A stretch of DNA of 64,000 bases from Escherichia phage SUSP2. Positions 21,322 through 59,425 of this stretch are shown here, piece by piece (position 1 is the first letter of the stretch; every line of letters begins with the position of its first letter). A program made the position numbers and the translations under genes. The stretch lies in sequence record KT454806; one strand, given 5' to 3'. The notes under the pieces are model-generated. The model saw only the letters and a program-made list of their open reading frames with translations. It ran no database searches and was not told the origin of the DNA.

Positions 21322-21341
21322 GGGGCTGAAAAGCCCCTTTT
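21322..21341 (+). terminator. rho-independent terminator candidate
   Basis: GGGGCT-gaaa-AGCCCC plus TTTT. Confidence 0.6.
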
Positions 21342-22938: not shown

Positions 22939-23137
22939 GCGTTTGTGGGAAGGTTTCACAGTTGATGCACCGATGATTGTCTTAGGTTTCTTCTTTGTGA
23001 ACCTGTTTATTGATATCAAACAAGGCGCTTTGTTTGGTGCTATGCTAGTATGGGTAATCTTTGAGATTCTAGAAATCCATCTTGACATTAGCGGCAAACT
23101 CAAAAAGTTTGTTGAGAAGATTTTCAAAAAGAATTAA
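22931..23137 (+). CDS. small membrane protein
   Basis: 68 aa with two hydrophobic segments. Confidence 0.4.
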   Translation: MLKRLWEGFTVDAPMIVLGFFFVNLFIDIKQGALFGAMLVWVIFEILEIHLDISGKLKKFVEKIFKKN

Positions 23138-23143
23138 TATAAG

Positions 23144-23164
23144 GGTCTCTTCGGAGACCTTTTT
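23144..23164 (+). terminator. rho-independent terminator
   Basis: GGTCTC-ttcg-GAGACC plus TTTTT. Confidence 0.7.
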
Positions 23165-26915: not shown

Positions 26916-27227
26916 ATGAGCAAGATTTATAACACTCGTAAGCTTCAGATTTTAATGCTTTGCCAGTTCATGTATGACAAACACAATGCACACTATTGTG
27001 GTACAGGCTTTTTAGCTTTTGGTGGTGAGTATACACCATTCAAAAAGGCTGTTGAGATGTATAATTCACAGAGTGAATCTGATAAAGAATTGCATCAACT
27101 GAAGTTGACTTATGACAAAAAGCACAAGAAGATTGTGTGTACAAACAACCTTGTCAAGCCATCTGAATCACTTAAGACAGATGTAAGCCAAGAAGACTTT
27201 ATGAGAGTCTTGAAAGAGCTTCAGTAA
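26916..27227 (+). CDS. hypothetical protein
   Basis: 103 aa. Confidence 0.45.
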   Translation: MSKIYNTRKLQILMLCQFMYDKHNAHYCGTGFLAFGGEYTPFKKAVEMYNSQSESDKELHQLKLTYDKKHKKIVCTNNLVKPSESLKTDVSQEDFMRVLKELQ

Positions 27228-27240
27228 TAAGTTATGATTA

Positions 27241-27265
27241 GGGAACTGTAAAAGGTTCCCTTTTT
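27241..27265 (+). terminator. rho-independent terminator
   Basis: GGGAAC-tgtaaaa-GGTTCCC plus TTTTT. Confidence 0.6.
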
Positions 27266-28969: not shown

Positions 28970-28985
28970 GGGGCTGAAAAGCCCC
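28970..28985 (+). terminator. hairpin (weak terminator)
   Basis: GGGGCT-gaaaa-GCCCC with poor T-run. Confidence 0.4.
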
Positions 28986-29006: not shown

Positions 29007-30833
29007 ATGTCTAAATCAATCTATGCAGTTCCAGCAGGTCTTAATGCAGATGCTTACAAAGCTGGTCACATCTACCAGTATCCAAGTGCAACTCAGTATC
29101 TGATGCTGAACCTTACACCTCGTGGTGATAAGTGGTTCAACACTCCTTTGGAGACTGATGGTGTAGTTGCTTTTGGTATCCAACGTTTTGTGAAAGATTA
29201 TCTGGTAGACCACTGGAATGCAACGTTCTTTGAACGTGATAAGAAAGAAGCCGTTGATGAAATCTTAGAAATCATGAATGGTGTACTTGGTGCAGATGCC
29301 ATTGGTCGCCAACATTGGGAAGAACTTCACGACTTAGGTTATCTGCCAGTGGCAGTATACTCTGTTGAAGAAGGTACAATTGTCCCTATGCGTGTTCCAA
29401 TGATTATCTTCAAAAATACCGTTGAAGGTTTCCATTGGGTAGCTGGTTATCTGGAAGATGCTTTCTCTGCTGAAATCTGGAAAGCTTGTACCATTGCAAC
29501 TATTGCATTACATTACAAACGTATCTGTAAAGGTTGGGCTGACAAGACTTGTGACAATGACTTCCATCTGCCTTGGCAGTGTCACGACTTTGCAATGCGT
29601 GGTATGTCTGGTTTCACAGACGATGCCTTCAATGCTGTAGGCCATCTTACCAGCTTCAAAGGTACTGATAGCTTCCCTGCTGTGTATACTGCTAAACGTG
29701 CATATGGACAGTTCATGACTGTAAGTGATATTGGTAACTCTGTTCCAGCAACTGAACACTCTGTGATGTGTGCAAACATTGCATGGAATATGAAAGACCT
29801 GTCAGAAGATGATATTCACTCACAGTATATTATGCAGTCTGATAGCTTACTGGATGCTAAACGTTGGCGTGGTGAGGTTAAAACCTTTGAACATCTTTTG
29901 GTAGATGTTTATCCAACTGGTATTGCAAGTGTTGTTTCTGATACTTACAACTTCTGGCGCACAGTTACAGAGGTTCTCCCAGAACTTCGTGAAGTAATCC
30001 TGAAACGAGATGGAAAACTGGTAATCCGTCCAGACTCTGGTGACCCTGTACACATTGTTACTGGCTATCGTGCAATTGAGTGGGAAAATGCTAAAAGTAT
30101 GTATTACAAACATATGTCAACCATTTCCCCTAACAACACTTATCTGCTTGATGCAATCTTGAATTGTAGCATGTCAGATATGGGTTATGGTTTCTCTGCT
30201 TGGTTAATCTCTGAAGGTTATGAGTTAGTTGTTGATGCAGAAGACTTTAACGTTGCTGATACAGTTAATCTGAAAGAAACTTACAAGACTGGTAAAGTTG
30301 TTGTTAAACGTATGCTGACAGCAGAAATTGATGGTGCTATCAAGACTCTATACAATATCTTTGGTGGAACTGTAAACGCTAAAGGCTACAAAGTTCTTGA
30401 TGAGCACATTGGCTTAATCTACGGTGATTCTATCACTCTGGAACGTGCTGAAGAGATTCTTAGTCGTCTTGCTGAAAAGGGCTTTGCAAGTTCTAACGTT
30501 GTTTTTGGTGTTGGTTCATACACTTACCAGTACCTGACTCGTGATACCTTTGCATTCGCTGTCAAAGCAACTCTTGCACAGATAGATGGGGAAGAAATCA
30601 TGCTGGCAAAAGACCCTAAAACTGATAGTGGTCTGAAGAAGTCTGCTTTTGGCGGTGTAGTCCCTATGTGGGATGGTGATAAGCTGGAAGCTGTAGATGG
30701 TTTTGGTTTTGCAGAATTTGAAAGCGTACTAGATAACCCTCAGTGTGCTCTGAAGTTGGTATTCTGTGACTCTCAGCCATATGGCTACGTTAATCTTCGT
30801 GATGTACGAAATGTTATTGACAGACAGCTTTAA
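29007..30833 (+). CDS. nadV: nicotinamide phosphoribosyltransferase (NAMPT)
   Basis: C-terminal GDSITLERAEEIL..VVFGVGSYTYQYLTRDTFAFAVKAT..AKDPKTDSGLKKSAFGG resembles the human NAMPT GDGVD..AFGSGGGLLQKLTRD..FKDPVAD block. Confidence 0.85.
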   Translation: MSKSIYAVPAGLNADAYKAGHIYQYPSATQYLMLNLTPRGDKWFNTPLETDGVVAFGIQRFVKDYLVDHWNATFFERDKKEAVDEILEIMNGVLGADAIGRQHWEELHDLGYLPVAVYSVEEGTIVPMRVPMIIFKNTVEGFHWVAGYLEDAFSAEIWKACTIATIALHYKRICKGWADKTCDNDFHLPWQCHDFAMRGMSGFTDDAFNAVGHLTSFKGTDSFPAVYTAKRAYGQFMTVSDIGNSVPATEHSVMCANIAWNMKDLSEDDIHSQYIMQSDSLLDAKRWRGEVKTFEHLLVDVYPTGIASVVSDTYNFWRTVTEVLPELREVILKRDGKLVIRPDSGDPVHIVTGYRAIEWENAKSMYYKHMSTISPNNTYLLDAILNCSMSDMGYGFSAWLISEGYELVVDAEDFNVADTVNLKETYKTGKVVVKRMLTAEIDGAIKTLYNIFGGTVNAKGYKVLDEHIGLIYGDSITLERAEEILSRLAEKGFASSNVVFGVGSYTYQYLTRDTFAFAVKATLAQIDGEEIMLAKDPKTDSGLKKSAFGGVVPMWDGDKLEAVDGFGFAEFESVLDNPQCALKLVFCDSQPYGYVNLRDVRNVIDRQL

Positions 30834-30848
30834 ATAAGTATTATAAGA

Positions 30849-30869
30849 GGCTCCTACGGGAGCCTTTTT
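30849..30869 (+). terminator. rho-independent terminator
   Basis: GGCTCC-tacg-GGAGCC plus TTTTT. Confidence 0.7.
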
Positions 30870-31222: not shown

Positions 31223-31386
31223 AATTAATCATGTCATTTGGTGGCCTGATTGTAATTGGATACCTTCTGGCTAAACACTTCTTCGGTACAGAAGAGTGTG
31301 AAGATTGTGATGGTACAGGTCTGGTAGGTTATGGGTGTTGTCCTTATTGTGGTGGAACTGGAAAGAAACATAACGGAAACAGTTGA
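31204..31386 (+). CDS. small membrane-anchored zinc-finger protein (DnaJ-type CxxCxGxG repeats)
   Basis: Hydrophobic N-terminus then CEDCDGTG..CPYCGGTG. Confidence 0.4.
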   Translation: MQGYWLELIMSFGGLIVIGYLLAKHFFGTEECEDCDGTGLVGYGCCPYCGGTGKKHNGNS

Positions 31387-31411
31387 CAATCGGTGCAGAG
31401 TTCTTTAAAGT
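31383..31411 (+). promoter_or_regulatory. sigma70-like promoter candidate upstream of rIIA-like gene
   Basis: TTGACA, 17 bp, TAAAGT. Confidence 0.4.
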
Positions 31412-31444: not shown

Positions 31445-33811
31445 ATGCGCATGGTAAATGACCACGCAGAGGTGATTAAGAGTTCATCTTCATTAGAAAC
31501 TTCTCAGGCGTCTATCACGATGACTCCTGAAATGTTCAGCCTGTTAAGTTCAGGTGTTTACACTTTTAAAGAACGTGCGGTAATCCGTGAGTTGTCATGT
31601 AATGCTGTAGACACCCACAAAGAAGCTGGAAAAGAGAATGTGCCGTTCCGTGTACATTTGCCAACTCGTTTTGACCCATACTTTGAAGTCCGTGACTTTG
31701 GTACTGGTCTGACTCACGAGAAGGTCATGTCTTTGTACCTGAACTATGGAGCTTCTACTAAGAATGACTCGAATGACTACATCGGTGCTATGGGTATCGG
31801 TTCAAAGTCACCTTTTGCAATCGCACAGTCATTCACCGTGTCCAGTTACGTAGATGGTGTGGTTAACAAGTACTCTGTATATCTTGAGAATGGTATTCCT
31901 CAAGTTACTAAACTGACGACCAACCCGACTACCGAACCAAATGGTTTAGCAGTTCGTGTTGCAGTAGCTGACCACCGTATTCAGAAGTTCCATGAAGAAG
32001 CGAGCAATGTATTCTCTTACTTCAAATTGAAACCAGAATGCAACGTAGAATACCGTGATATTCTTAGCGAGATGACTACCATTGTCCGTGAAGATGGTGT
32101 TTACGATGCGATGAAGTATAAAGAGAACTGGCGTTCAAGCAATAACCAGACAAATTTCAACGTTGTCATGGGTAACATTGCTTATCCTGTTGACTTAGGA
32201 GACTTGCTTGGTGCAGAGTTCACCAATGTTCTTCCTACATTCTTCCGTAACGCTGTAGACCTTGTTAACATCTACATGCCGATTGGTTCAGTAGCTATCG
32301 CTGCATCTCGTGAAGCATTGCAGATGAATGAGACCACCAAGAAAGCAATTACAGATGCAGTTAAAAAGATTACTGCAACAATTGTAGAAGATGTGGTAAA
32401 ACGTATTGCTGACGAACCAACTCTGGTAGATGCAGCACAGGCTTATGCAGACTTGCGAGCTAACTCTCGTGAAATCTTCCAGCATGTGTTTACCCGTCTT
32501 GAGTGGAATGGTCAGAACTTAAGTAACCTTGAGCAGAAACTTTTAAAGATTCGTCAAGGACAATTAAGTAATCAAGATGGTACTCCAAAGTTTGCGACTG
32601 ATGATTCAGGAGCTTTGGTTGTTGATAAGAGTGGTAATCATATTCCAGTGATTGGCAATCTTTATGAACCTGTTGCATACTTTAAGTACAGCCAGCTTGA
32701 GAACAAAATTCGTGCTACTTCAGCGTTGTACACTCAGGAGGGTGCAAACTTCAGTATCTTCGGTGCAATGAGTAAGAACAAAATGTCTAACTATTTGTTC
32801 CTTATCAATGACCGTCGAAACAAAAATGGTACTGAAAAGACTGTAGGACGTAATCAGATTATTCGTGGTGCTTGCCGTGACCGTGAAAATGAAGAACCAA
32901 ACTTCCGTCGCTATAATGGTATTGTATACGTCTTCTCTGATGAGAAAGAGTTAGATGATTTTATCAGTCTTCACATGCTTGATAAGAGTCTGTTGACGAT
33001 TGTTAAAATGTCTGACAAAGAGCATCACTATGTGAAGCGTACCGTGACTCGTGGTGTTGTAAAACTCTACAAAGCTTCTGTACATGAGCATGGAGTGTCC
33101 TATGGAGAAGTGAAAGAAAACTTTGATGATATTGAAGAACCTCAGTATTATATCAAGGCTCAAAGTGATGAGGTTCTTGGTGGTATATTTAACTGTTCTC
33201 CAGAGGCGGCTGCTAAGGTATCTGCACGTTTAACTGGACAGTCAGTTTATGTGTTCCGTAAAGCAAACTGGAAGAAAATTCCTGAAGACTGGTTAGAAGT
33301 AAATCAGCAAGTCTTCAAAGATTCTATCACTGACATTCACTGGATTGAGTTTAACCGTTTTGTAACTCGTGAATGGTGTAGTTCAAACTGTGATATCACT
33401 GATAAAGGTGTTATTGCCAGAACGTTCCAGTTTGGTGATAAGAAGTGCTCAAGAGGTTATGTCTACAGTGCTGACTACAGCAAACGTATCTTCTTGGAAG
33501 GGAACGAAGAGGCTGTAGAAGCAATGTTTGGTAAGCTGGCTTATGTCGCTTCACCAATTGCTTATAAGGACGTTACAAGTGTTCTGCATGACTTACAACG
33601 CTTGACAAGAGCCAAGAGTAAGGTACACTCTGCAATCTACAATGCAAGAGAACGTATTAAGCAGAAACTGAGTGTGTACTTCACAGCACGTAAAGCAGAA
33701 AACTTCTTGCTTTCTAACTTAGACTGGAATAAAGTAAGTCCTGTTGAAGTTGGTCAGTTCTTAGGATTTGATGTTAAGTGCATCCCTGAAGGAACTCAGG
33801 CTTTTGATTAA
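31445..33811 (+). CDS. rIIA: rIIA-like protein with N-terminal GHKL (Bergerat-fold) ATPase domain
   Basis: 788 aa; N-box ELSCNAVD, G1 box RDFGTGL, G2 box GAMGIGSKS; size and domain order as T4 rIIA. Confidence 0.6.
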   Translation: MRMVNDHAEVIKSSSSLETSQASITMTPEMFSLLSSGVYTFKERAVIRELSCNAVDTHKEAGKENVPFRVHLPTRFDPYFEVRDFGTGLTHEKVMSLYLNYGASTKNDSNDYIGAMGIGSKSPFAIAQSFTVSSYVDGVVNKYSVYLENGIPQVTKLTTNPTTEPNGLAVRVAVADHRIQKFHEEASNVFSYFKLKPECNVEYRDILSEMTTIVREDGVYDAMKYKENWRSSNNQTNFNVVMGNIAYPVDLGDLLGAEFTNVLPTFFRNAVDLVNIYMPIGSVAIAASREALQMNETTKKAITDAVKKITATIVEDVVKRIADEPTLVDAAQAYADLRANSREIFQHVFTRLEWNGQNLSNLEQKLLKIRQGQLSNQDGTPKFATDDSGALVVDKSGNHIPVIGNLYEPVAYFKYSQLENKIRATSALYTQEGANFSIFGAMSKNKMSNYLFLINDRRNKNGTEKTVGRNQIIRGACRDRENEEPNFRRYNGIVYVFSDEKELDDFISLHMLDKSLLTIVKMSDKEHHYVKRTVTRGVVKLYKASVHEHGVSYGEVKENFDDIEEPQYYIKAQSDEVLGGIFNCSPEAAAKVSARLTGQSVYVFRKANWKKIPEDWLEVNQQVFKDSITDIHWIEFNRFVTREWCSSNCDITDKGVIARTFQFGDKKCSRGYVYSADYSKRIFLEGNEEAVEAMFGKLAYVASPIAYKDVTSVLHDLQRLTRAKSKVHSAIYNARERIKQKLSVYFTARKAENFLLSNLDWNKVSPVEVGQFLGFDVKCIPEGTQAFD

Positions 33812-33824
33812 AAATAGTTTGACA

Positions 33825-33840
33825 GGGGCTGCAAAGCCCC
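33825..33840 (+). terminator. hairpin terminator candidate embedded in a promoter-like spacer
   Basis: GGGGCT-gcaa-AGCCCC, flanked by TTGACA (33819-33824) and TAGAAT (33842-33847). Confidence 0.4.
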
Positions 33841-33890
33841 TTAGAATACGAACCACTAAGTAATATTAACTAACAAGAGAGAGTAATAAG

Positions 33891-35000
33891 ATGACTACTA
33901 AAACTAAAGCACAAATCGACGCAGAAATCTATGCACTGGTTCAGGAAGGTAAACTGACCAAAACTGCCATTGCAATGAAGTATAACACTTCTACTCGTTC
34001 CGTTGGTCGTGCTGTAGAACGTCACGAAGCAACACTGAAAGGTGCTAAGAAAGCAACTTCCAAGCCAGCTAAACAGACTCTGAAACAGATTGCAAAGTCT
34101 GCTAAGAAGACGTCTACTAAGCCAGTTGCCAAGGCTGTTAAAGAGGCAGTGAAGAAAGAACCTGTTAACCAACTGCACGAAGCAATGCAGAATGGTAACC
34201 AGATTGAGTACATGATTACTGGTGATTCTGTTATCATGACTTTCGGTGCAGATTCTGAAATCGTTGAGTCTACCCATCCGAACTATAAAGAAATCGTGAT
34301 GGCTGTTGTAGGTGGTGAGTACAAGAAAGCTTTCGAACTGATGAACATTCGTAAGTCTATTGAGAACTTCACTCAGGGTGCAATCACCATCAAAGGCGAT
34401 AACCTGTACTACGGTGCTGTTCAAATGCGTTCCACTCTGGTAGACCGTATTCTGGATATGATGAAAGCTGGCGACGATGGCTTTAAACGTCTGGTAGCAT
34501 TCTTCGAAAAACTGATGGAAAACCCATCCAAAGATTCTGTAGAACAACTTTGGGGATTTGTATCCCACCTTGACGTTGAGATTGATGAAGAAGGTTATAT
34601 CATCGGTTGGAAGAAAGTTACAACTCGTGGTGGTAAGCTGTTTGACTCCCGTACCTGCAAAGTTCCTAATGATTTGGGTAACGTTGTAGAGATGCCACGC
34701 TGGATGGTTGATAATGACCGTACAGTAACTTGCTCTCAAGGTCTGCATGTTGGTGCTTGGGATTATGTCCGTAGCTTCTCTGGTGACACTATCCTGAAAG
34801 TTCGTGTACATCCACGAGACGTTGTATCTGTACCAACTGACTACCAAGATATGAAAATGCGAGCTTCCCGTTATGAAGTTGCAGCAATTGTGAATGGTCA
34901 GCGTCAGGTTGTCAAAGAGTGGGATGGCAAATCTGAAGCACTGCATGTTGTTGTAGGCACTGCTGGTGAACTGATTTCTCAGCGTAAACGTGAAATCTAA
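33891..35000 (+). CDS. rIIB: rIIB-like protein
   Basis: 369 aa immediately after rIIA-like gene; assignment by position and size, N-terminal pattern weakly resembles rIIB. Confidence 0.45.
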   Translation: MTTKTKAQIDAEIYALVQEGKLTKTAIAMKYNTSTRSVGRAVERHEATLKGAKKATSKPAKQTLKQIAKSAKKTSTKPVAKAVKEAVKKEPVNQLHEAMQNGNQIEYMITGDSVIMTFGADSEIVESTHPNYKEIVMAVVGGEYKKAFELMNIRKSIENFTQGAITIKGDNLYYGAVQMRSTLVDRILDMMKAGDDGFKRLVAFFEKLMENPSKDSVEQLWGFVSHLDVEIDEEGYIIGWKKVTTRGGKLFDSRTCKVPNDLGNVVEMPRWMVDNDRTVTCSQGLHVGAWDYVRSFSGDTILKVRVHPRDVVSVPTDYQDMKMRASRYEVAAIVNGQRQVVKEWDGKSEALHVVVGTAGELISQRKREI

Positions 35001-35016
35001 TAAGTAAATTCTTAAA

Positions 35017-35039
35017 GGGCTGCTTCGGCAGCCTTTTTT
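35017..35039 (+). terminator. rho-independent terminator
   Basis: GGGCTGC-ttcg-GCAGCC plus TTTTTT. Confidence 0.7.
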
Positions 35040-35100
35040 ATTTGTGTTTTGTGCAGAGTAGTGTATAATTGCTTGCATGTTGAACTAAACAGGAGAACCA

Positions 35101-35652
35101 ATGAAGAAGTTCATTTTAGGTTTGTGCTTATTCTTAACAGCACATTTGGCAGTCGCTTCAGACTGTCCAGAATTATCCATCAGTCAGAAAACAAACATGC
35201 TTAAAGCTTATCACTACGGTGAGAAAGAGATGGGTAAAGGTTGGGGATTAACCTTAGCCGCTATAGCCTTACAAGAGTCAGAGTTAGGTCTTCGTCTTGA
35301 AAATAAAAAGACTCACGATTATGGATTGTTCCAGAATCACTTGAAGACTGTTGTAAAGCGTAACAAAGTTAGCCCAAGCGTAGCTAAGAAGAAACTTATC
35401 AGAGACTTCAATTATGCTGCAAAGGAGACACACAAAGAGCTTCAGTTCTGGACTAAGGTTCATGGTAATCCTAATGGGAAATACTCTTTACAGCGTGTCT
35501 TAGCTTCATATAATGCAGGGTACTCATACCGCATTCCAAAAGCTAGACAATACTCTCAAGATGTGTACAATAACATGAAGGTGCTTGCTCAATGTGAGTT
35601 TGCAACAAACATCAAAAAGGTTAAACATGAGCGAATTAAAACAATTGGATAA
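35101..35652 (+). CDS. secreted lytic transglycosylase (SLT domain)
   Basis: Signal peptide MKKFILGLCLFLTAHLAVAS; catalytic-region motifs ALQESELG, DYGLFQ, SYNAGYSY. Confidence 0.7.
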   Translation: MKKFILGLCLFLTAHLAVASDCPELSISQKTNMLKAYHYGEKEMGKGWGLTLAAIALQESELGLRLENKKTHDYGLFQNHLKTVVKRNKVSPSVAKKKLIRDFNYAAKETHKELQFWTKVHGNPNGKYSLQRVLASYNAGYSYRIPKARQYSQDVYNNMKVLAQCEFATNIKKVKHERIKTIG

Positions 35653-36334: not shown

Positions 36335-36799
36335 ATGCAAAACATTATTACAGTAGCTATCGACGCATCAGCAAACAAATCACAGGTTGTTCGTGATATC
36401 ATTAAAAGCAACTTTGATGGCAAAATCTTTCGTGCTGTCAACGTAAAAGTGGATGGTGATATCCGTGAATATCGTGCTTTGCTGAACGTGTCAAAACACG
36501 TTAAAGGTGTCGGTTCTACTACAGCACATAAAGAAAACCTGATGACCATCTATGATATGGGTATGGCTTCAGAGTTGGGTGCTAAAGGAATTGTACAGTC
36601 CGGTGCTCCGTACCGTTCTTTCAATCTGGAAACTGCTCTTATGCTTTCCTTTACAAGTGGTTCACAAACTACCACGTATCTCTTTACTGATGCTGCAACG
36701 GTATCTGCCATTAAGGATAGCACTATCAAGGCTGGCGTAGCTGCTGCTGCAAAAGCTTCAACGATGGCTGCAAATGTCCTTGCTAAAGTCCTCGGTTAA
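36335..36799 (+). CDS. hypothetical protein
   Basis: 154 aa. Confidence 0.5.
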   Translation: MQNIITVAIDASANKSQVVRDIIKSNFDGKIFRAVNVKVDGDIREYRALLNVSKHVKGVGSTTAHKENLMTIYDMGMASELGAKGIVQSGAPYRSFNLETALMLSFTSGSQTTTYLFTDAATVSAIKDSTIKAGVAAAAKASTMAANVLAKVLG

Positions 36800-36811
36800 G
36801 GTTATGATACA

Positions 36812-36832
36812 GGCTCCTTCGGGAGCCTTTTT
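36812..36832 (+). terminator. rho-independent terminator
   Basis: GGCTCC-ttcg-GGAGCC plus TTTTT. Confidence 0.7.
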
Positions 36833-50968: not shown

Positions 50969-51046
50969 TTTACTTTCCTCGCATATGAAAAAGGGACTAC
51001 CCTTAAGTAGCCCCATCATATAGAAATCTGTATACTGCTGTCAAGA

Positions 51047-56528: not shown

Positions 56529-57944
56529 ATGAGCGATTTATTTAAACATTCGCACCTTCATGCAGGGCGAACTGAAAATGGTGCTGTTAACCATACATCA
56601 TCAATGTCTGCCTTGGTAGACTTCTACAAAGCTGCTGGTTCAAGCCGTGGTAATGTAGAGATTCTCCCAGAGTTGTTCTACAAAGCTTTGCGTGAGGATG
56701 TTGATGTAGCAGTTCGTATTTTACTGCATATGCGAGATGTACGAGAAGGTATGGGTGAGCGTAAAGCTTTCCGAACTGTTCTCTTACAAGCAATCGAAGA
56801 TAACATTCTAGATTCTTTCCAAGTTCTTCGTATCATGGATAAGATTTCTGAATTAGGTCGTTTCGATGACTTCAAAATCTTCGTAGGGACTCGTTATGAG
56901 ACAGATGCTTTCAAGCATTTAGAAGCAGCTTTGTTAGACCCTGATACAGCAGGTTTAGCAGCTAAGTGGTTACCACGAGTAAAACCACGACACAAACAGT
57001 TTGTAAAACGTTTCTGTAAGTTTGCAAACCTGAGTGAGAAAGAATACCGTACACTGTTATCAGCTTTGTCTGATACCGTTGAACAGAAAATCTCTACAAA
57101 TAACTTTGGTGAGATTGACTACAGCAAGATTCCTTCACTGGCTGCTGCACGTTATCAAAAACTGTTCAGCAAAAAAGATGGTGAACGTTATGCAGCTTAC
57201 GTTGAAGCTTTATCCAAGGGTGAAGCAAAGATTAATGCTGGTGCTGTGTACCCATACGATATTCTGAAGTCCGTTAATCACGGTAAAGCAAACGTTGCAA
57301 ACGAACAGTGGAAAGTATTACCAAACTGGATGGCAGAAGGTGAAAACATTCTGTGCATGACAGACGTATCAGCTTCTATGACGTGGCAAACTTTTGGTGC
57401 TGTTACCGCTCTTGATATTGGTCTGTCTTTGGCGTTATACGTCTCAGAACGCAATACAGGGTGCTTTAAAGATGAGTTGATGGTTTACTCCACAAGACCT
57501 CACTTTATTACTCTGAGTGGTGATTTGCAGACTCGTATGCGTCAGGTAATGAACAAGGTTGAGTATGGTTCAACAAACCTGCAAGCAGCATTTGACCGCA
57601 TTCTTGAAATCGGTGTAAGAAATGGCTTGACTCAGGCAGCAATGCCAAGTAAGCTTATTATCTTCTCTGATATGGAGTTCAATCAGGTTGACGGTGCAGA
57701 TGGTTGTACAAACTTCGAAGCAATTCGTAGTAAGTACGAAAAAGCTGGATACGAAATGCCACAACTGGTATTCTGGTACTTAGCAAACCGTAATGGTACT
57801 TGCGAAGTGTCTGTTAAGGATAACGGTGTAGCAATGGTATCGGGGTTCTCTCCAGCCACTTTAAAAGCTCTGCTTGGTGGTGAGAAGTTTGACCCAATCA
57901 GCGTAATGCTCAAAGCAGTAATGATTGACCGTTACATCTGGTAA
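56529..57944 (+). CDS. vWA-domain protein, possibly Ro60-like (TROVE plus vWA architecture)
   Basis: 471 aa; MIDAS-like DVSAS in CMTDVSASMTW at about residue 277; TROVE assignment of the N-terminal 260 aa is tentative. Confidence 0.5.
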   Translation: MSDLFKHSHLHAGRTENGAVNHTSSMSALVDFYKAAGSSRGNVEILPELFYKALREDVDVAVRILLHMRDVREGMGERKAFRTVLLQAIEDNILDSFQVLRIMDKISELGRFDDFKIFVGTRYETDAFKHLEAALLDPDTAGLAAKWLPRVKPRHKQFVKRFCKFANLSEKEYRTLLSALSDTVEQKISTNNFGEIDYSKIPSLAAARYQKLFSKKDGERYAAYVEALSKGEAKINAGAVYPYDILKSVNHGKANVANEQWKVLPNWMAEGENILCMTDVSASMTWQTFGAVTALDIGLSLALYVSERNTGCFKDELMVYSTRPHFITLSGDLQTRMRQVMNKVEYGSTNLQAAFDRILEIGVRNGLTQAAMPSKLIIFSDMEFNQVDGADGCTNFEAIRSKYEKAGYEMPQLVFWYLANRNGTCEVSVKDNGVAMVSGFSPATLKALLGGEKFDPISVMLKAVMIDRYIW

Positions 57945-57963
57945 AAAGTTTTAAAAAGGGTAT

Positions 57964-57992
57964 TGACAATCTGCTCGATACCCTTTAATATG
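57964..57992 (+). promoter_or_regulatory. strong sigma70-like promoter upstream of tRNA island
   Basis: TTGACA, 17 bp, TAATAT; A/T-rich upstream. Confidence 0.55.
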
Positions 57993-58110: not shown

Positions 58111-58187
58111 CTCCGTTTAGCTCAGTTTGGTAGAGTGCGCCGTTTGGGGCGGTGAGGTCGAAGGTTCAATCCCTTCAACGGAGACCA
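58111..58187 (+). tRNA. tRNA-Pro (anticodon UGG)
   Basis: Hand-folded cloverleaf: acceptor ctccgtt/aacggag, anticodon loop tttgggg, T-arm gaagg-ttcaatc-ccttc, encoded CCA. Confidence 0.75.
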
Positions 58188-58194
58188 AATTAAT

Positions 58195-58272
58195 GTTCCA
58201 GTAGACAAATTGGTAAAGTCACCACACTTTCAATGTGGAGTTTTGAGGGTTCAAGTCCCTTCTGGAACGCCA
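58195..58272 (+). tRNA. tRNA-Glu (UUC)
   Basis: Acceptor gttccag/ctggaac, anticodon loop ctttcaa, CCA. Confidence 0.75.
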
Positions 58273-58355
58273 AATTTGACAGAAGACCAAGTACAGCAAA
58301 TAACTTTACTTTTCGCGCATAGAAAACTTAAAAGTTTGGTCTGGTCATAAAAGTT

Positions 58356-58432
58356 CGCGGGTATAGAGAAAGGGCGTCTCACATGTCTCATTAGCATGGT
58401 ATCGGCAGGTTCGACTCCTGCACCCGCCTCCA
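58356..58432 (+). tRNA. tRNA-like gene, anticodon CAU (Met/Ile2/fMet undetermined)
   Basis: T-arm gcagg-ttcgact-cctgc, anticodon loop ctcatta; 1-72 mismatch and unusual discriminator. Confidence 0.4.
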
Positions 58433-58514
58433 AATTTGCAGAAGACCGTTTACAGCAATCTCAAAAATTTTTATCGGAAAAAATGAAAAGATACGGTCTG
58501 GCAATACTAAACAT

Positions 58515-58591
58515 GGTGAGGAAGCACATAAGGCATGTGCGGTCGGCTGTTAACCGAATGGTATAGGGTTCGAATCCCTAACTCACCGCCA
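58515..58591 (+). tRNA. tRNA-Asn (GUU)
   Basis: Anticodon loop ctgttaa, T-arm taggg-ttcgaat-cccta, CCA. Confidence 0.7.
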
Positions 58592-58651
58592 AGATTTGGG
58601 AGAGAAGCGTAATGCTCACCGATTTGTAAGGTGCAAGTCCTTAGCCTGAAT

Positions 58652-58739
58652 AGAATAAAATGCGTCGTTATCCCGTAGATGGAAGCGGTGGTGACTGTAA
58701 ATCACTTGTCATTATGACTCGGTAGGTTCGACTCCTTCA
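58652..58739 (+). tRNA. tRNA-Tyr (GUA), long variable arm
   Basis: Acceptor gcgtcgt/acggcgc, anticodon loop ctgtaaa, 88 nt. Confidence 0.65.
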
Positions 58740-58745
58740 CGGCGC

Positions 58746-58823
58746 ACCAAATAAAGGTTATGTAGTTTAATCTGGTTAAAATACTCCCCTGTCACGGGAG
58801 ATGATGAGGGTTCGAATCCCTTC
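58746..58823 (+). tRNA. tRNA-Asp (GUC)
   Basis: Anticodon loop ctgtcac, stem ctccc/gggag, CCA. Confidence 0.75.
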
Positions 58824-59261
58824 GTAACCGCCAAATTTGAGAGGGCTTTTTAGCCCCTCCCTTAAAGAGTTCTTACGAGTATTCTTTAAAGGAGCAGAAG
58901 ACCAAATTCAGCAAGCCAACTTAAAAAATTTCAAGCCAATTTAATTTTGAAAAATTTAAAACTTGGTCTGGCTCAACAAATTTACAGAAGACCGTTTACA
59001 GCAAGTATAAAACAATCTATTTCTCTGGTAAAGAAAAGGCGAAGGTTCGATTCCTTCACACGTTACGGCGTGTTGGTGTAATGGTAGCACTTAAGATAAA
59101 ACAACGGTCTGGTAATCTTCTTTGCAGTGACTTATGGAGCTAAATGCCGTCCCATGAGTGCCGATGAATTTCCTTAGCATGATTCTAGATTAGCTTAATA
59201 GGAAATGACTCTACAAACCCTTTAGCAAGGTTTGCGTAGGTTACTGCAAAGATGATTTAAT

Positions 59262-59337
59262 GGGAGTGTAGCAGAATGGTGATGCGGCAGACTTTTAATC
59301 TGACAGGCGACGGGTTCGAATCCCTCCACTCCTACCA
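59262..59337 (+). tRNA. tRNA-Lys (UUU)
   Basis: Acceptor gggagtg/cactcct, anticodon loop cttttaa; weak T-stem. Confidence 0.6.
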
Positions 59338-59343
59338 AATAAT

Positions 59344-59420
59344 GGTTCAGTCGCAGATAAGGTAATGCAAGGGTTTCATAAGCCCTATGAATGTGGGTTC
59401 GAATCCCATCTGAACCTCCA
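59344..59420 (+). tRNA. tRNA-Met-type (CAU)
   Basis: Acceptor ggttcag/ctgaacc, anticodon loop ttcataa. Confidence 0.65.
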
Positions 59421-59425
59421 ATTAT

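Follow-up and report, generated by a model that had tools for sequence, protein, structure and literature searches.

A conserved promoter-hairpin element with the layout of promoter-early stem-loops between the rIIA- and rIIB-like genes of Escherichia phage SUSP2

The window analyzed here, a 64,000-nt stretch of Escherichia phage SUSP2, belongs to a Felix O1-like myovirus of the Ounavirinae. On its + strand an rIIA-like gene of 788 aa (31445..33811 in the ORF list; annotated rIIA in relatives) is followed by an rIIB-like gene of 369 aa (33891..35000, with its ATG at 33891), and direct reading of the 79-nt, gene-free gap between them revealed a promoter sequence and a hairpin, both on the + strand. 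The rIIA stop codon TAA (33809-33811) is included in an A/T-rich stretch, TTAAAAATAGT (33808..33818), lying 5' of a -35 hexamer TTGACA (33819..33824). The -10 hexamer TAGAAT (33842..33847) follows after a 17-nt spacer; both hexamers were also returned by the promoter scan, where the pair matched the sigma70 consensus at 11 of 12 positions. The spacer is filled by a hairpin (33824..33841) composed of GGGGCT (33825-33830), the GNRA loop GCAA (33831-33834), AGCCCC (33835-33840) and T33841. Because A33824, the last base of the -35 hexamer, pairs with T33841, the stem comprises 7 bp, five of them G-C. An earlier note on this DNA had described precisely this series, TTGACA, GGGGCT-gcaa-AGCCCC plus T, and TAGAAT at 33819-33847, and the letters agree with it exactly, the 17-nt spacer included. 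From sigma70 geometry, transcription would start 5-8 nt past the -10, at 33852..33855. About 29 variable bases separate the -10 from a Shine-Dalgarno-like GAGAGAG (33877..33883), which is conserved in the alignment and lies 7 nt 5' of the rIIB ATG.

The rIIA-rIIB unit ends at a canonical intrinsic terminator located 3' of rIIB (35014..35043, +), which has a 10-bp stem, a UUCG loop and a T-run (tail score -5.25). Just 5' of rIIA, a promoter-like TTGACA-17-TAAAGT (31383..31411, +), identified by its consensus match only, is the likely origin of transcripts reading into the hairpin. An open frame of 402 aa runs antisense to the entire rIIB gene (33870-35078, - strand); it is longer than rIIB and misled length-based gene calling, and is probably no real gene. 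The gene map was drawn by strand domains and omits 35101-35652.

The hairpin contributes about -13 kcal/mol when folded as RNA, and a 44-nt stretch of the site gave a minimum free energy of -14.6, with a z of -3.75 relative to shuffled sequences and none of 200 shuffles folding equally well. As DNA, the same hairpin reached -7.7 kcal/mol. The earlier note had also raised the idea of structure-dependent regulation, which for the promoter DNA remained unsupported. Cruciforms do not readily extrude from arms of only 7 bp closed by a 4-nt loop, and extrusion was dismissed on this general ground.

First-order Markov simulations gave an expectation of 0.033 per 64 kb for a promoter that matches at 11/12 or better and whose spacer holds a perfect 6-bp hairpin, against one observed, which by itself is modest evidence. 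The element is nevertheless real, since it is present in all 31 of the Felix O1-type (Felixounavirus/Suspvirus-type) relatives that were read; the two overlapping signals that the earlier note placed here are thus genuine, conserved and located where they had been described. Thirty of the 31 relatives have TTGACA as their -35 and the remaining one has TTGACT, the -10 is either TAGAAT or TAAAAT, and both hexamers match at 5/6 or better in all 31 while the adjoining bases drift. The stem arms GGGGCT/AGCCCC are invariant except for one destabilizing G-to-A change in two relatives. In spacer length SUSP2 (17 nt) differs from Felixounavirus (18 nt), sigma70 tolerating both. What varies in the alignment is the loop (GCAA, GAAA, TTGA, TCAA), a stretch of some 20 nt past the -10 and the bases that precede the stop codon. 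Within the Felix-type genera covariation was sought and none was found, as the stem is invariant at this level. The adjacency of rIIA and rIIB is constant in all the relatives, and the site region is 98% identical to that of Salmonella phage PC79-13 and 94-97% identical to that of the Suspvirus phages EcSzw-2, EP1 and mistaenkt. Two loop sequences occur in Felixounavirus (relatives L002-L030; Felix O1, L036:2305-2320), TTGA and its reverse complement TCAA, the pattern expected when a loop inverts within a perfect palindrome.

A hairpin of about -13 kcal/mol was also found 3' of the rIIA stop in four further lineages with unrelated stems, namely Felix O1 (AAGGGGCT/AGCCCCTT), phiEa21-4 (GGGCTG-GAAA-CAGCCC), Wc4 (TGGTGGC-CTAACAA-GCCACCA) and Zyzzx, the last sharing its form with contig L028 (AAGTGGTC-TAATAA-GGCCACTT). 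None of these four junction hairpins carries a T-run. In phiEa21-4, Wc4 and Zyzzx the rIIA stop is no more than about 20 nt away from the hairpin, and each gap folds significantly better than its shuffles (z of about -3). Promoter hexamers are missing in phiEa21-4 and Wc4, implying that the hairpin can function without the promoter; Zyzzx has a TTGACA, its hairpin overlaps a weak -10, and its stem includes a U-G pair that is functional on the sense strand only. Since distant relatives keep a junction hairpin with unrelated stems, the hairpin predates the promoter that surrounds it. The replacement of sequence with retention of structure, together with the sense-strand-specific features, therefore indicates a role in RNA that was started upstream. 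A DNA search for Erwinia relatives seeded with Wc4 matched only 4 Pectobacterium phages.

Within the window, the rIIA-rIIB site is the only copy with a spacer-embedded hairpin. In a census that took in six of the seven copies of the cassette described below, 14 of 26 intergenic sense-strand hairpins overlapped or adjoined a sigma70-like promoter; the antisense control gave no overlap, and random placement gave a mean of 1.7-2.9, with none of 2000 trials reaching 14. Promoter sites matching at 11/12 or better numbered 8 against 1.8 expected, and all 8 were on the sense strand. In all the hairpin-promoter arrangements, a transcript started at the promoter would be without the complete hairpin. 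The GGGGCT/AGCCCC stem occurs twice more, as GGGGCT-GAAA-AGCCCC, directly after the stop of the nrdA-like gene (21322..21337, +) and directly after the prs-like stop, before nadV (28970..28985, +). Neither copy has promoter hexamers, the second also lacks a T-run, and the flanks are dissimilar. In Felix O1, a different U-less hairpin follows nrdA, and an HNH endonuclease gene replaces the prs-nadV hairpin.

An intergenic cassette of about 85 nt, extending up to the next ATG, is present in seven copies on the + strand (40147, 40616, 40960, 41562, 42630, 43455 and 44399). Its order is stop codon, AAAGTGC, TTTACA, nGGGGYT.., TAGTAT, ..CCCC, AGATAAAGAG.., CTAAACTGGAG and ATG; the copies are 72-91% alike and lie among small ORFs, and the hairpin, of 9-11 bp and with no T-run, encloses the -10 in a loop of 9-14 nt. 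The cassette shares with the rIIA-rIIB site the GGGGYT 5' arm right after the -35 and the lack of a T-run, but it is a dispersed repeat whose 3' arm lies past the -10 (TTTACA-nGGGGYT..TAGTAT..CCCC) and which bounds modules that Felix O1 lacks. Specifically, Felix O1 has no counterpart of the gene modules that follow 40147, 40616 and 43455; in that phage the cassette alone matches. By blastn, all cassette matches fell in Ounavirinae-type records (286 records, 1366 places), and no homology to the stem-loop promoters of T4-like phages was detected.

In a third arrangement, the -10 of a -35/-10 pair ends 1-3 nt before a canonical terminator. This is the case at 23112-23162, 27210-27261, 30817-30868 and 36780-36828 on the + strand (terminators at 23141, 27240, 30845 and 36811) and at 51044-50993 and 53126-53075 on the - strand (terminators at 50993 and 53075). 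Transcripts of these six pairs would start inside the 5' arm and so escape termination. Felix O1 retains three of these abutting pairs, along with three cassette copies and the rIIA-rIIB site. Between the DUF2828/DUF7788 gene (56529-57944) and the tRNA cluster (58111-63575, +), a hairpin AAAGGGTAT..ATACCCTTT (57955-57992, +) engulfs a -35: its loop contains TTGACA, and TAATAT follows immediately. The arrangement resembles a composite of terminator and promoter that would feed the tRNA genes. A search of the whole window with Rfam at gathering thresholds returned only the 23 tRNA matches of this cluster and nothing at the rIIA-rIIB site. Another hairpin, AGGGCTTTTTAGCCCCT (58841-58857), lies shortly past the tRNA at 58756-58830.

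The layout of the rIIA-rIIB site is identical to that of the promoter-early stem-loops (PeSLs) described in the T4-like phages RB49 and phi1 (Arbiol, Comeau and Krisch 2010, PMC2839356; Comeau 2014, PMC4122927). [quoted passage not shown] Promoter and terminator activity has been reported from reporter constructs for the RB49/phi1 cassettes only (PMC2839356). We read the RB49 gaps directly. The 206/205 gap has TAA..AAAAGTTG / TAAAGTTG-TTGACA-GGGGATC-GGT-GATCCCC-TATAAT and 191/190 has TTGACA-GGGGAG-GATAA-CTCCCC-TACAAT; these two, together with 192/191, 211/210, 210/209 and 187/186, match the SUSP2 site in carrying a spacer hairpin. The gaps 199/198 and 186/185 mirror the 7-copy cassette, which corresponds to the PeSL subclass with the stem-loop overlapping the -10. 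The SUSP2 site is intergenic, with the upstream stop inside TTAAAAATAGT, a stretch that, like its PeSL counterpart, may resemble part of a proximal UP element, and has the sigma70 hexamers, the stem-loop, and the Shine-Dalgarno sequence with its ATG. Both systems thus have the same order of parts (stop, A/T run, TTGACA, GGGG..CCCC in a spacer of 17-18 nt, -10, Shine-Dalgarno sequence, ATG), lack a T-run, and lie between same-strand early genes of a virulent enterobacterial myovirus that uses the host sigma70.

They also differ. The PeSL lineage is Straboviridae and the present one Ounavirinae, no sequence homology was detectable outside the consensus parts, and activity of the SUSP2 copy is a prediction. 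In RB49 the PeSLs lie next to ORFans, in variable regions; the rIIA-rIIB copy sits between conserved genes with no indel. PeSLs are dispersed repeats that cluster among small ORFans; in the window the spacer-embedded form occurs once and the related form enclosing the -10 seven times. The association with indel boundaries was seen for the 7-copy cassette only, where the absence of the adjacent modules from Felix O1 is the modular-indel pattern reported for PeSLs. We found no papers in the literature linking PeSLs to Felix O1-like phages or Ounavirinae. A scan of IMG/VR for TTGACAGGGG..CCCC(N)TANNNT gave 105 matches, of which 59 had a complementarity of 6 pairs or more, against roughly 14% expected. 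These loci (L040-L142) place the layout in many unrelated viral contigs, from fragments of about 4 kb to about 366 kb. Because the matches span contigs of many sizes and types, the spacer-hairpin promoter design is widespread. Several sequence families are represented among them, for example TTGACA-GGGGCTTTCATCGGCCCC-TACAAT and TTGACA-GGGGGCTTCCAGCCCCC-TATAAT.

The earlier note had called the hairpin a terminator, a label that its sequence does not bear out. The tail, UUAGAAUAC (also given as TTAGAATA; UUAGAAU in RNA), has only two consecutive U, with no U-rich tract directly 3' of the stem, and scores -1.80 on a TransTerm-style scale, versus -3.8 to -5.3 for the 11 T-run hairpins of the window, which mostly have UUCG or UACG loops and all carry 5-7 T in the 8 nt past the stem. 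With canonical Rho-independent terminators the hairpin shares a GC-rich stem, a stable tetraloop and its position 13 nt past a stop codon; the U-tract makes the difference. The terminator scan of the window did not call it, in Felixounavirus both U are taken into the stem, leaving AGAAUAG as the tail, and in the available part of the Felix O1 paper the terminator table (Table 2) has the terminator after rIIB as its first entry and none for the rIIA-rIIB gap (PMC3185647). In view of these data, we find it unlikely that an efficient terminator ends essentially all rIIA transcripts and leaves rIIB wholly reliant on the embedded promoter; moreover, the canonical terminator past rIIB fits a leaky internal hairpin and suggests that rIIA and rIIB may be co-transcribed. 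The case for efficient termination comes from PeSL211/210 of RB49, whose stem-loop GGGGAT-CACGT-ATCCCC, likewise followed by a -10 (TATACT) and without a T-run, was reported to cut lacZ as much as rrnB T1, although the lacZ assay cannot tell termination from RNA processing (PMC2839356). The proposal in the earlier note that a single site could end rIIA and start rIIB transcription agrees with the published PeSL logic (PMC2839356), but its terminator half is not earned by the sequence. It could also be argued that the hairpin alone is functional, as an intercistronic RNA stabilizer or processing signal, and that the flanking hexamers are an unused promoter. Intercistronic stabilizer hairpins are known in bacterial operons, e.g. 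the REP elements in malE-malF; they resemble the present one in being stable and U-less, directly past the upstream stop, with structure conserved and sequence not, and differ in that the rIIA-rIIB hairpin is nested inside a promoter. The hairpins without hexamers in phiEa21-4 and Wc4, the identical ones at 21322 and 28970, and the U-less one 3' of nrdA in Felix O1 are in line with this explanation, yet we judge it quite improbable given that the hexamers persist in 31/31 relatives amid drifting neighbors, at a spacing of 17 or 18 nt only, and that in Zyzzx, too, a TTGACA is present, though the hairpin it accompanies is another one.

At the level of DNA, the 16-bp palindrome GGGGCT-N4-AGCCCC might be an operator at which a spacer-bound regulator shuts off the rIIB promoter. 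The palindrome is perfect and in the classical repressor position, its sequence, beyond the pairing, is invariant across three genera, and the window encodes an HTH_3 (Cro/C1-type) protein of 109 aa with a weak match to sigma70 region 4 (1945-2274, -), a candidate phage transcription regulator. While the palindrome may have a DNA-level role, an operator of this kind is very doubtful: two of the three copies stand directly 3' of stop codons where no promoter was found, other lineages swap the sequence and keep the pairing, including through a G-U pair that exists on the sense strand only, and GNRA loops appear on the sense strand in three lineages. The over-long spacer of 19-20 bp that would mark a MerR-type promoter, or one with an operator in its spacer, was looked for and not found, the lengths being 17 nt in SUSP2 and 18 nt in Felixounavirus. 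Equally hard to credit is a more general proposal, according to which U-less GGGG..CCCC hairpins in sigma70 promoters would be a distinct type of phage insulator, widespread and able to terminate transcription with no need of a U-tract. The -10 just past the hairpin would then serve as a sigma70-dependent pause signal for polymerases coming from upstream, replacing the U-tract pause. If true, this would explain the rrnB T1-like strength reported for the RB49 stem-loop without a T-run, as well as the recurrence of the layout in unrelated phages. Sigma-dependent pauses, however, usually occur more than 10 nt past a -10-like element, and it is this less than ideal geometry that makes the proposal so improbable. 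Finally, promoter-like matches are common (38 found versus 27.5 expected in 12 kb), but that hairpin and hexamers met by chance is scarcely believable for a composite expected so rarely per window, conserved in all Felix-type relatives, which contradicts coincidence, and recurring in RB49 and many unrelated viral contigs.

The interpretation that we favor, and hold to be probable, is that the rIIA-rIIB junction carries a composite cassette of the PeSL type, in a Felix O1-like phage that relies on the host RNA polymerase; according to its published description, Felix O1 encodes no RNA polymerase of its own (PMC3185647). Judging from geometry and conservation, TTGACA-17-TAGAAT would be a working sigma70 promoter for rIIB, with a start at about 33852-33855. 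As this start lies downstream of the hairpin, rIIB transcripts initiated there would never carry it, and the hairpin would be present solely in RNA coming from upstream, i.e., rIIA read-through. On the rIIA 3' side, where its position and structure are conserved, the hairpin may work as a pause site or a leaky attenuator; it may also, or instead, block 3' exonucleases and so define a stable rIIA message. Termination would probably be partial, because the -10 hexamer sits in the place of the U-tract. The rIIB gene would then draw on read-through as well as on its own promoter, in a unit closed by the terminator at 35014. The idea of a roadblock, formed by a polymerase bound at the promoter, was rejected on geometry, since an incoming polymerase would halt before the hairpin was transcribed. 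Against the cassette we counted that the stem does not covary within the Felix-type genera, that 11/12 promoter matches also occur inside coding sequence, that phiEa21-4 and Wc4 have no promoter hexamers, and that a perfect DNA palindrome coexists with a phage HTH_3 regulator. Our search of the literature for transcript maps, 5' or 3' ends, or stem-loop promoters of Felix O1 or other Ounavirinae yielded nothing usable, and the supplement of the UAB_Phi87 paper contained no entry attributable to rIIB.

The rIIA-rIIB element is real, yet its design is one already described in T4-like phages as PeSLs. The finding extends the PeSL design beyond the T4-like phages and alters no general concept. In the Felix O1 paper, how transcription proceeds past the many terminators of that phage, whether by read-through or from secondary promoters, is stated as unknown (PMC3185647). 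The overlaps between promoters and intergenic hairpins found here, namely the rIIA-rIIB site, the 7-copy cassette and the -10 elements abutting terminators, offer a concrete and testable answer to that question, in a group of phages that is widely used in the biocontrol of Salmonella and E. coli.
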